A stretch of DNA of 14,248 nucleotides. It comes from a virus (lineage: Duplodnaviria > Heunggongvirae > Uroviricota > Caudoviricetes). Below the pieces are notes generated by a model that did no database searches, was not told the DNA's origin, and saw nothing but the letters and a program-made list of their open reading frames with translations. Both the position numbers and the translations under genes were made by a program. The stretch lies in IMG/VR virus record IMGVR_UViG_2585427739_000001; one strand, written 5' to 3'. Position 1 is the stretch's first letter, and every line of letters begins with the position of its first letter. Of the stretch, positions 2,083-5,260 are shown piece after piece.

Positions 2083-2576
2083 TGCTGACCCCACAAACAG
2101 ATTTCACGCTCAATCTCACGACGAGTCATGAGACCTTTCCATTGCTTACCGCCAGCATATGTCCAGCGACGTAGCTGATCACATGCGCCTTTGATATCGC
2201 CCTGGTTTATTTTGCGAAGAAGCGTCGATGTTCTGAAATTGCCAGCACCCACGTTGTAAACGAATGAGTAAAGAGCGCCGCGCATTGTTTCCGGTATATC
2301 GACTTTGATGTACGGGTTAATTTGTCTGGCGACCGTGGCAAGGTCTTTATTCAGGAGGGCTTTGCATTCTGCTTTGGTATACGTTTTACCGAGCATGATG
2401 TCTTTTCCTGTATGCCCGTGACATACAGTCCATACACCAACAATATCTTTGTATGGTATGTAGCTGGCACCTTCCAGACCATCGTTACCACTTGGGCCAG
2501 TGATTAACACAGATGCTATAGCAATAGCCCCGCCACCAATAGCAGCAGCAACAGCTTTTCGTAATGATGGAGGCAT
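2079..2576 (-). CDS. R: SAR endolysin (phage 21 R-type lysozyme with N-terminal signal-arrest-release domain)
   Basis: 165 aa, [36 protein letters not shown]... then a lysozyme core; near-identical to phage 21 R / DLP12 RrrD as I recall them. Confidence 0.9.
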
Positions 2577-2791
2577 TATCCACCTCTCGCAGCCTTGCGC
2601 TTATCTTCTTTAATCTTGAAATAAAGGTTTGTCAGGTACGTCAGCAGGCCAAATACCAGGCTACCCAGCACACCTATTGCTGCCCACTGTGAGGGCGTGA
2701 CTTTATCGAGCAGCTGTAAAAACCAGTAACCGGCACTACCTGCTGAGGTGCCATAGGCGACACCCGTTGTTAACTTATCCATGGATTTCAT
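2576..2791 (-). CDS. S: Pinholin S21 (dual-start holin/antiholin: 71 aa from M1, 68 aa from M4)
   Basis: [71 protein letters not shown] matches phage 21 S / DLP12 EssD; stop overlaps the R start. Confidence 0.9.
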
Positions 2792-2913
2792 AACCCCACC
2801 TCGCAGACAAAGCGGGTGTAAATTGAGGGAATACTACGAAACGTAACAGACTCGGAGTCAGTGAATAACTCAGGTATTGGGTTATCAGCTAATATCGAGA
2901 CTCAAAAAATGGA

Positions 2914-2936
2914 AAAACCCGCTCGACGGCGGGTTT
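2914..2936 (-). terminator. Terminator-like hairpin upstream of S on the late-gene strand
   Basis: Plus strand aaaaacccgc-tcgacg-gcgggttt; on the minus strand the stem is followed by UUUUUCCAUUUUUU. Function as a late-transcript attenuator is inferred only. Confidence 0.35.
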
Positions 2937-3363
2937 AAGCTGTGTGACGAAGTAACCACTCTTAACAGCATAACCAATTTTTTACGTACGTAAACCACTA
3001 AATGATATTTGCGAGAATGCTACCGAGTATTGAAAACACCACTACAAATACATAAGCAAATCTCAACAAATAACCAACAAATAATTTCCAGTGTTATTTT
3101 TAGCCAATTTAAATTGAACCTTCAAATTATAGAGCACTTATAAATAACAGCCGTTAATATAAATTGGCTAATAGATTTATTTTTATTCAGCCAAGAGCTA
3201 TGAATAGGATTCGATAGAAAAAAGTTCAGATAAAAATAGAGATCTACTTCACAAATCAAACGAGAAACCAAAACTTACATCTTGAAATAATCACATTGAT
3301 TAGATGAATATTTATCGCGCAGTGACATCATTTTTTAATAATAGTTCAAAAAAAGGGCTCACG

Positions 3364-4461
3364 ATGAAAAAATTAACAGTGGCAATTTCTGCTGTAGCTG
3401 CATCAGTACTGATGGCGATGTCTGCTCAGGCAGCTGAAATTTATAATAAAGACAGTAACAAGCTGGATCTGTACGGGAAAGTTAATGCTAAGCACTACTT
3501 CTCCTCTAATGATGCAGATGATGGTGATACTACTTATGCCCGTCTTGGCTTCAAAGGTGAAACCCAAATCAACGATCAACTGACTGGTTTCGGTCAGTGG
3601 GAATATGAATTCAAAGGCAACCGCGCTGAATCTCAAGGTTCCTCCAAAGATAAAACCCGTCTTGCCTTCGCTGGCCTGAAATTCGGTGACTACGGCTCCA
3701 TCGATTACGGCCGTAACTACGGTGTAGCATACGACATCGGTGCGTGGACTGACGTTCTGCCAGAATTCGGTGGTGACACTTGGACTCAAACCGACGTGTT
3801 CATGACTCAACGTGCAACTGGTGTTGCAACCTATCGTAACAACGACTTCTTTGGTCTGGTTGATGGTCTGAACTTTGCTGCTCAGTACCAAGGCAAAAAC
3901 GATCGTAGCGATTTCGATAACTACACTGAAGGTAACGGTGATGGCTTCGGTTTCTCTGCTACCTATGAATACGAAGGATTCGGTATCGGTGCAACTTATG
4001 CGAAATCTGATCGTACCGACACTCAAGTTAATGCAGGGAAAGTTCTTCCTGAAGTATTTGCTTCCGGTAAAAATGCAGAAGTTTGGGCCGCAGGTCTGAA
4101 ATATGACGCTAACAACATTTACCTGGCCACTACCTATTCTGAAACCCAGAATATGACTGTATTTGCTGATCACTTCGTTGCTAATAAAGCCCAAAACTTC
4201 GAAGCTGTTGCACAATATCAGTTCGATTTCGGTCTGCGTCCGTCCGTTGCTTACCTGCAATCTAAAGGTAAGGATCTTGGAGTATGGGGCGATCAGGACT
4301 TAGTCAAATATGTTGATGTAGGTGCAACCTATTACTTCAACAAAAATATGTCTACTTTCGTTGATTACAAAATCAACCTGCTTGACAAAAATGACTTCAC
4401 TAAAGCACTCGGTGTAAGCACTGATGACATCGTTGCTGTAGGTCTGGTTTACCAGTTCTAA
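3364..4461 (+). CDS. nmpC: Outer-membrane general porin, NmpC/Lc/OmpD family (prophage moron, apparently intact)
   Basis: 365 aa with signal peptide [23 protein letters not shown]|AEIYNKD, porin-typical beta-strand repeats and C-terminal ...VGLVYQF. Encoded between Q and S on the opposite strand, as in DLP12 and phage PA-2. The ORF-track start at 3304 is an upstream extension. Confidence 0.88.
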
Positions 4462-4471
4462 TCTGATTACG

Positions 4472-4511
4472 AAAAAGATATGTTGCGGGAGGCATTGCCT
4501 CCCCAACATAT
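4472..4511 (-). terminator. Long hairpin plus U-run on the minus strand immediately past the nmpC stop; candidate late-operon early terminator (tR'-like)
   Basis: Imperfect palindrome atatgttgcgggaggcattgcctccccaacatat (4477-4511) preceded on the plus strand by aaaaa, which reads as stem plus CUUUUU on the minus strand. Confidence 0.4.
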
Positions 4512-4592
4512 AAGTGGCTCCCTCAAGCCACTTCCTTTAGAAGCACAACCTTGCTTCTAACTATATAAACCTTCTGTTATATATTACCCTTT

Positions 4593-4623
4593 ATTTTTGG
4601 GGGCGTCTCAACGCCCCATTTTT
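4593..4623 (+). terminator. Hairpin with flanking T-runs between convergent nmpC and Q; candidate nmpC terminator
   Basis: tttttgggggcgt-ctca-acgcccc-attttt: GC-rich stem followed by a T-run on the plus strand. Confidence 0.45.
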
Positions 4624-4650
4624 AATAATTTTTAGTAAACAATTGGCATA

Positions 4651-5034
4651 TTAATTAGAGTTATTAACAACGATATCCATCTCTAACCGGATATCTAATG
4701 CCATTAACATCCCTTCAATTATGCCCTCAGCCTTCTGTAACCTTTTCCCGATATAACCATCAGAGCAGCAATGCTTACCTGCCAGTGACATGAATGTCAT
4801 ACCGACTACATAATAATCTACTAATAAATCGTGCAAATCGCTGTTGTTCTTTTTCAGACGGGCCATGCACCCGCAAATAATCATCGCGTCATCGTCACAA
4901 CATTGCGGGCGAGATTTTACTTTTGAAGTAATTAATCCCTTAAAACCGGCGGCAATGGACGACCAGGTCACATCTTCATGATTATTAGCCGCCCACGCTC
5001 CCCAACGCTCAAGAACCATCTGAATATCACGCAT
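4651..5034 (-). CDS. Q: Late-gene antiterminator Q (phage 21/DLP12 QuuD type)
   Basis: 127 aa from [26 protein letters not shown]... with Cys-rich zinc-binding region ([16 protein letters not shown]); matches Q21/QuuD as recalled. The ORF track adds 5 upstream codons. Confidence 0.88.
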
Positions 5035-5119
5035 CAACTTACTCCACAAAAATCAGACCAGAACGCCAATTACAAGCAAAAATCAACAAAACAGTATTAG
5101 TTGATTGTTATCTCTGACT

Positions 5120-5260
5120 TCATACTCCTGCTCCTGTCAGGGTTTTGGCGTAATTCTTCAGTATTCGGTAATCGGTCAAAACAGAACCGGGGAAACGATA
5201 TAAGCGCAGACGCCCCCAGCGGTGGCGAAGAAGTTCTGCCATATTAAACTCAAACATCAT
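5120..5260 (-). CDS. ylcG: Small protein YlcG-like (46 aa)
   Basis: Hand-translated [49 protein letters not shown] between rusA and Q; the ATG overlaps the rusA stop (ATGA). Absent from the ORF track because it is under 60 aa. Confidence 0.5.

Follow-up and report, generated by a model that had tools for sequence, protein, structure and literature searches.

A hairpin cluster beside the Q gene of a DLP12-type prophage is very probably the porin-linked RNA IpeX and carries a predicted antisense match to ompC

The window examined here, meaning the whole stretch of DNA that was analyzed, consists of 14,248 nucleotides of a tailed-phage genome (Caudoviricetes; IMG/VR record IMGVR_UViG_2585427739_000001) and is a DLP12/qsr′-type lambdoid prophage of Escherichia coli. 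Between its porin gene nmpC and its late antiterminator gene quuD (Q) lies a dense cluster of hairpins, and this cluster is very probably the known RNA IpeX, the 3′ untranslated end of the nmpC transcript (of the lc transcript in phage PA-2). While the hairpin cluster has already been described as IpeX, the part that apparently has gone unreported so far is an antisense match of this RNA to the ribosome-binding region of ompC mRNA. We propose, with about even confidence, that IpeX is a classical antisense RNA rather than an example of a "novel mechanism," in that its 3′ third (4564-4596) would form a 27-bp duplex with ompC and a shorter one with ompF, which would explain why repression is Hfq independent for ompC and Hfq dependent for ompF.

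Results

Identification of the hairpin cluster

Positions 4400-4700 of the window were 100% identical to the DNA of E. coli strain IAI1 and 99.7% identical to that of K-12. The cluster sits in the 189-bp spacer 4462-4650, between the stops (4461 and 4651) of the convergent genes nmpC and quuD, and 188 of the 189 spacer positions equal both K-12 DLP12 and the sequence downstream of lc in PA-2 (record J02580); the sole difference to the two is base 4494, in the loop of the first hairpin (H1). Reviews describe IpeX as a 167-nt RNA of DLP12, also present in PA-2, which is made from the phage porin promoter within the porin transcript, is then processed, and represses OmpC and OmpF; in the literature, the repression of ompC is Hfq independent. 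The cluster has the position of this RNA, since it follows the porin stop directly, lies on the porin strand, and ends at the Rho-independent terminator of the porin gene. Its features are given below, with the ends of IpeX (4462-4628) set from the stop codon, the position of the terminator, and the reported length.

4462-4628, plus strand: region assigned to the IpeX RNA, the nmpC 3′ untranslated region (3′ UTR) from stop codon to terminator tail, 167 nt
4478-4511, either strand: H1, imperfect palindrome of 15 bp with a bulged C at 4486, −22.2 kcal/mol
4512-4533, plus strand: H2, hairpin of 8 bp, loop CCCUCA, −10.4 kcal/mol
4537-4560, plus strand: H3, hairpin of 8-9 bp, loop CAACCU, −9.6 kcal/mol
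4562-4583, plus strand: H4, weak hairpin of 7 A-U pairs, loop ACCUUCUG, −1.3 kcal/mol
4564-4596, plus strand: predicted antisense segment, H4 and the linker before the terminator, from duplex prediction with ompC and ompF
4600-4623, plus strand: T, intrinsic terminator of nmpC/IpeX, from the terminator scan; hairpin 4600-4617, −12.5 kcal/mol

Castillo-Keller et al. are said to have placed ipeX, in 2006, between the nmpC stop and a predicted Rho-independent terminator, and reportedly found that PA-2 carries the same sequence after lc and that the RNA represses OmpC and OmpF, post-transcriptionally, and spares OmpA. An Rfam search of 4400-4700 returned no hit at the gathering threshold and, at permissive settings, only unrelated families at chance level (E > 1). 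In the RefSeq genome records examined, including NC_000913.3, which does annotate micF, an IpeX feature was absent.

Hairpins, terminator, and folding

A prediction made earlier from the letters of the window (here, the original prediction) had claimed four stem-loops in this region, and an inverted-repeat scan with per-hairpin energies recovered all four, at coordinates differing by about 1 nt. The strings that it gave for H2 and H3 were both found, with a shift of 1 nt in their placing (gtggctccctcaagccac at 4514-4531 and the H3 string at 4539-4558); its count of four was confirmed, except that it had missed a fifth hairpin, the weak and AT-rich H4. It had also read H1 as a terminator on the minus strand, and this strand call is correct as a sequence feature, because the T-run that follows the palindrome, CTTTTTCG, occurs on the minus strand only. 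The minus-strand flank of H1, also given as CUUUUUCG, is terminator-like, yet it was not among the sites called by the terminator scan; as a plus-strand feature, H1 is a stable hairpin located 16 nt past the nmpC stop.

The GC stem that the original prediction took for a plus-strand terminator, T in the list above, proved to be the sole terminator-like site called on that strand in 4200-5200. It consists of a GGGGCGU-CUCA-ACGCCCC stem-loop with 7 bp (6 of them GC) followed by AUUUUU (ATTTTT in the DNA), and the U-rich stretch UUUAUUUUU precedes it. On the minus strand, its tail reads CAAAAA, so that it does not appear as a terminator there. Folding of both strands, proposed as a check, gave −63.1 kcal/mol for the plus-strand RNA 4462-4630, compared with −29.9 ± 3.5 kcal/mol for 200 dinucleotide shuffles (z = −9.5), and z = −5.9 for the minus strand. 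These results indicated that the hairpin cluster exceeds chance.

The hairpins H1 to H3 and that of the terminator would serve mainly as stabilizing or processing structures. On the plus strand, H1 could guard the 3′ end of nmpC or set the limit of processing, and on the minus strand, it may be a terminator or insulator, halting early transcription that leaves Q before it runs antisense into nmpC. The C/U-rich loops of H2 and H3 may provide stability or further contacts.

Predicted pairing with porin mRNA leaders

IpeX was scanned against the leaders of ompC, ompF, and ompA (K-12) and that of nmpC, using windowed or seed-restricted duplexes with accessibility; a whole-length prediction without a loop limit produced meaningless giant loops and was discarded. 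In the predicted ompC duplex, IpeX 4568-4582 (AACCUUCUGUUAUAU, the loop and 3′ arm of H4) forms a core of 15 uninterrupted base pairs, one of them G-U, with ompC −21 to −7 (AUAUAACAGAGGGUU), which contains the Shine-Dalgarno (SD) sequence GAGGG. Pairing of 4588-4596 with −31 to −23 and of 4564-4566 with −5 to −3 extends the duplex to 27 bp over ompC −31 to −3. Its energy was −26.7 kcal/mol, against −15.1 ± 3.0 kcal/mol for shuffled seeds, of which 0/1000 were as good, and among 2297 natural background windows of 120 nt, drawn from the loci analyzed, none was as good (the best reached −22.9 kcal/mol). Opening the two sites costs little, 6.1 kcal/mol in ompC and 4.4 kcal/mol in IpeX (in the latter owing to the weak H4 and the open linker), and the net energy is about −16 kcal/mol. 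In a DNA comparison, the spacer's minus strand aligned with the ompC leader (AAATAAAGG...ATATAACAGAGGGTTAATA) over 33 columns, with 0/1000 shuffles as good; judged by this alignment, the segment 4564-4596 resembles an ompC-type leader copied in inverted orientation.

With ompF, IpeX 4570-4592 was predicted to pair with −14 to +8, that is, over both the SD sequence and the AUG, in blocks of 10, 5, and 4 bp (−18.6 kcal/mol), and the duplex scan of the ompA and nmpC leaders yielded nothing above shuffles. The predicted pairing, strong for ompC, modest for ompF, and none for ompA, thus matches the reported specificity of IpeX. On the target side, 5365 of 5426 E. coli genomes carry an ompC leader with 99% identity or more. 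The accessible IpeX literature, to which the primary 2006 paper does not belong, makes no mention of extended complementarity between IpeX and the ompC ribosome-binding site.

Sequence variation and distribution

A BLAST collection of 87 spacer copies from viral contigs, phages, and genomes comprised 27 distinct variants, 22 of which were kept. Of the five dropped, four had obvious homopolymer errors and the fifth had a 10-bp deletion. Within 4462-4628, 6 of the 92 stem positions were variable, compared with 17 of the 75 non-stem positions (Fisher p = 0.003). Recurrent changes were found at the H1 bulge 4486 (C, T, or deleted) and in the H1 loop at 4494 (A, G, or T), while in the terminator, whose stem is conserved, the middle two bases of the loop read CT, TT, or TG; in H2, the loop-closing pair alone varies. 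Two substitutions in H3, 4541 A>G and 4559 A>G, give G-U pairs on the plus strand and C-A mismatches on the minus strand. IpeX 4568-4591, on the other hand, was invariant in all 22 variants despite including loop and linker positions, a class that is variable elsewhere. The structure is under constraint, and the hairpins are conserved in related prophages, one of the points on which the original prediction had staked itself.

Of 5426 complete E. coli genomes, 2510 (~46%) contained the spacer, mostly at an identity of 90% or more, and it also occurred in 36 phage records. The number of places it occupied in a genome had a median of one and never exceeded three, and all of them lay in this prophage context. 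The 80 viral contigs that encode QuuD all had a 99% identical Q and the same spacer, and where Q has been lost, as in strain STEC299, the IpeX element stays with the porin. Among GTDB species representatives, the exact H2 sequence occurred in E. coli records only, plus one 442-bp contig (NZ_VJYK02000722.1, labeled Streptomyces alkaliterrae). This contig carries nmpC-IpeX with 99% identity over 123 nt up to its end, and the match is almost certainly E. coli contamination.

Several rearranged copies were also observed. In strain JB2, an IS5-family element has removed nmpC and IpeX up to ~4586 and left the terminator alone beside quuD, and in E. coli LR-29-1, a 10-bp deletion directly after the terminator tail places quuD 12 nt from the tail. 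The record of the phage 434 mutant 434B (OL657227.1) carries the DLP12 qsr′ segment with quuD, the IpeX spacer, and an IS5-split nmpC, a segment that it evidently acquired by recombination from the K-12 chromosome.

Neighboring genes and the late promoter

The genes flanking the spacer, and a more distant promoter region discussed below, are as follows.

3364-4461, plus strand: nmpC/lc-type phage porin gene (Pfam Porin_1, E = 4.7e-157; RefSeq porin annotation)
4651-5037, minus strand: quuD, late antiterminator Q, 127/128 amino acids (Pfam PF06530, E = 3.5e-53)
2905-2994, minus strand: homologue of the Shiga toxin (Stx) phage promoter pR′, with the −35 element TTTACG at 2994-2989 and the −10 element TATGCT at 2972-2967, from the VT2-Sakai alignment

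By K-12 and PA-2 annotation, the porin open reading frame (ORF) 3364-4461 is the counterpart of DLP12 nmpC and PA-2 lc; it is intact here (365 amino acids), whereas the K-12 copy is split by IS5. Upstream of it (3000-3363), the DNA is very AT rich and has a tandem TTATTTGTTG repeat at ~3055-3077 on the minus strand, and the PA-2 record marks two CRP sites in the counterpart of this region. No consensus promoter for nmpC was called by the promoter scan in 2500-3500. A 69-amino-acid ORF on the minus strand (4300-4509), named ORF1 in the PA-2 record of the 1980s, begins within H1 and runs antisense to the 3′ end of nmpC; it is probably not a gene. QuuD belongs to the PF06530/Q21 fold family, matches the Q21 structures 6P18/6JNX distantly, and shares 77-80% identity with the Q proteins of Stx phages (VT2-Sakai and 933W type).

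The original prediction had suggested that the cluster might contain the late operon's pR′ promoter, Q-utilization site, and early terminator, or else an RNA element, for instance a small RNA (sRNA) or processing sites. The second of these suggestions was borne out, as sequence identity and the literature point to IpeX; the first did not hold. The promoter scan found no sigma-70-like promoter on the Q (minus) strand in 4200-5200. Candidates sought by eye on this strand around TTGAGA (in the terminator loop) or TTTACT were rejected, as neither has an acceptable −10 element at 16-18 bp.

In the VT2-Sakai phage, the −35 element of the late promoter (TTTACG-16-TATCAT) overlaps the end of Q, and in its sequence, 258 nt separate the start site from the T-run of the second terminator farther downstream; the same distance from pR′ to the terminator tR′ has been mapped in Sakai Stx phages by differential RNA sequencing (dRNA-seq) and Term-seq. 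The VT2-Sakai pR′, its start region, and the first hairpin with its T-run align at ~80% identity with window positions 2996-2905 on the minus strand, and not with 4472-4630. This pR′ homologue, flanked on one side by the region upstream of nmpC and on the other by the holin gene essD (2576-2791), has the equivalent of the start site at ~2960, followed by a strong hairpin and T-run (2936-2905) that the terminator scan called. The hairpin and T-run lie ~115 nt upstream of essD. On the same strand, 2905-2994 gave a weak, sub-threshold Rfam match (11.8 bits) to isrK, a short RNA transcribed from a phage promoter under antitermination control, and the −10-like pause element of VT2-Sakai, TACATT, is not kept in the homologue (TACTTC).

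The late-operon control region thus most likely lies at 2905-2994 on the minus strand. The position of the pR′ homologue beyond nmpC implies that a porin cassette (~3000-4650) was inserted between Q and pR′, and by this sequence comparison, late transcription would begin beyond the cassette and never cross the hairpin cluster. GTTTAC, followed a few bases on by TAAAAA, occurs on the minus strand both at ~4620-4638, after the quuD stop, and at ~2975-2995, at the pR′ −35 element; the pair could be a junction repeat from insertion of the nmpC cassette. QuuD lacks the ~18-residue C-terminal tail of the VT2-Sakai Q (2465-2938 in the VT2-Sakai sequence), whose 3′ end overlaps the pR′ −35 element, and this would fit a replacement of the original junction of Q end and promoter by the porin cassette.

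Discussion

The cluster lies directly downstream of Q, like pR′ in lambda, 21, 82, and the Stx phages, and could on that account be a minus-strand late control region, with pR′, a Q-utilization site, and H1 as tR′, yielding a short RNA like 6S or StxS. The T-run after H1 on the minus strand favors this explanation, as does the GTTTAC...TAAAAA sequence just past the Q stop, which resembles the −35 region of the Stx-phage pR′. However, the minus strand has no promoter-like site, upstream of H1 included, and no −10 element at a workable distance from TTTACT; the homologue of the mapped Stx pR′ lies at 2994-2905, and the spacer accompanies the porin gene where Q is missing. This explanation is largely refuted already, and we regard it as very unlikely. 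Alternatively, the hairpins could act in cis only, as terminators for nmpC on the plus strand and for the Q operon on the minus strand and as structures protecting the nmpC 3′ end from exonucleases; the multicopy effect in trans would then be a side effect of overexpression, and the ompC match would have no physiological role. T and H1 do show terminator features on opposite strands, and Castillo-Keller et al. in 2006 reportedly found ipeX as a multicopy suppressor. It is also known from the literature that ipeX levels did not account for OmpC differences among clinical isolates. Against a purely cis-acting role, five hairpins exceed what termination needs, and the 27-bp match to the ompC ribosome-binding site stands out from shuffles and natural background and falls in an invariant, accessible segment. 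Moreover, PA-2 lysogeny itself is said to lower OmpC via the lc transcript, reportedly by Castillo-Keller et al. in 2006 and likewise in a review. We consider it unlikely that the cluster acts in cis only.

A functional minus-strand RNA, made by read-through from Q and acting as a decoy, e.g., for CsrA, MicC, or MicF, would account for the porin-leader-like, GGA-rich motifs of that strand (AAAGGGUAAU, CAGAAGGUU, and the loops AGGUUG and UGAGGG) and for its resemblance to the ompC leader. The minus strand also folds well (z = −5.9), and two stem changes (the H2 closing pair and H4) are wobble compatible on it only. Yet the genetics in the literature assigns the activity to the porin-sense transcript, three stem changes favor the plus strand, and the Q operon is repressed in a lysogen, where the minus strand would be expected to be silent; we give such a decoy little credence, with a probability that is slight at best. 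As for the palindromes being dispersed extragenic repeats of the repetitive extragenic palindromic (REP) type, a REP-finding tool is reported in the literature to list ipeX among sRNAs with "REP." The exact H2 sequence, among species representatives, is confined to E. coli records plus the one apparent contaminant contig, and this reading was rejected on copy number, the spacer occupying a median of one and a maximum of three places per genome; its probability is close to nil.

Several points weigh against the assignment to IpeX and its action by pairing. With no Rfam family and no RefSeq feature, the identification rests on sequence identity and the literature, and the putative 5′ and 3′ ends 4462-4628 are derived from the reported length and the terminator position. 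Among the 22 variants, no stem contains a compensatory double substitution, and the changes that preserve pairing on one strand only, three of them on the plus strand (two in H3 and one in T) and two on the minus strand (one in H4 and one at the closing pair of H2), are so evenly divided that they do not tell which strand is the functional one. The predicted ompF duplex exceeds background by a small margin (p ~0.03-0.05). Castillo-Keller et al. in 2006 reportedly found no complementarity of ipeX to the required ompC region, and if a minimal active ipeX fragment lacked 4564-4596, the pairing model would fail.

The complementarity to ompC is a computed result, and from it we infer the following mechanism for IpeX as an antisense RNA. 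Transcription from the porin promoter would pass the stop at 4461 and H1 to H4 and end at the terminator (4600-4623), and the product would be a structured tail of ~167 nt, reported to be released by processing. The weakly structured part 4564-4596, made up of the H4 loop and 3′ arm and the U-rich linker, would act as the antisense seed and pair with the translation-initiation region of ompC (27 bp, −31 to −3, over the SD sequence) and, to a lesser extent, with that of ompF (SD sequence and AUG). Such pairing would block ribosome binding, and expression of the phage porin would thereby be coupled to loss of the host porins. The Hfq independence reported for ompC would fit this model, because a duplex of such length should depend less on Hfq. 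On either side of T, the U-rich stretch and the U-tail would together form a typical Hfq-type 3′ module.

The ompC match offers a simple mechanism for an RNA whose mode of action the literature calls unclear, and if pairing is the mechanism, it would settle the 20-year-old question of how IpeX works. A phage porin coupled to an antisense RNA against host porins would mean that the porin set of the cell is swapped by one transcript. As OmpC is the receptor of PA-2, this coupling would also be a superinfection-exclusion device. An RNA present in ~46% of complete E. coli genomes is without an Rfam model or a feature in the RefSeq records examined, and it is this annotation gap that kept a reader of the sequence alone from recognizing IpeX. 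In prophages of the DLP12/PA-2 type, in addition, the porin cassette stands between Q and pR′, so that what directly follows Q is not the late promoter.

Compared with known systems, the cluster is closest in kind to IpeX of DLP12 (qsr′) and PA-2, with which it shares the locus, a near-identical sequence, the position after the stop, and the same terminator; in contrast to K-12, where nmpC is split by IS5, the porin gene is intact here, so that IpeX can come from its native promoter. The pR′-tR′ transcripts (lambda 6S RNA, StxS, and Gifsy-1 IsrK) are likewise small structured RNAs next to Q in lambdoid prophages, but they are made from the Q strand and start at pR′, whereas the IpeX cluster belongs to the porin transcript on the opposite strand, and the homologue of their module in the window, at 2994-2905, is ~1.6 kb distant from it.

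MicF and MicC, the chromosomal antisense RNAs that block translation of ompF and ompC, resemble IpeX in the predicted imperfect duplex of ~20-30 bp over a porin SD sequence or AUG and in being terminator-ended sRNAs with a U-rich 3′ module; extended, accessible complementarity to a porin translation-initiation region is what the predicted ompC duplex displays. Unlike them, IpeX is the 3′ UTR of a competing prophage porin gene and not a free-standing gene, it belongs to neither the MicF nor the MicC family of Rfam and has no significant similarity to any other, its putative seed lies in an internal weak hairpin and not at the 5′ end, and its repression of ompC is reported to be Hfq independent. 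sRNAs that derive from a 3′ UTR and use the terminator of the parent mRNA include CpxQ, DapZ, SroC, and MicL. IpeX resembles these in lying between the stop and the mRNA's own terminator and in its reported processing, and it differs from them in being horizontally acquired and unusually long and hairpin rich, with five stem-loops in 167 nt.

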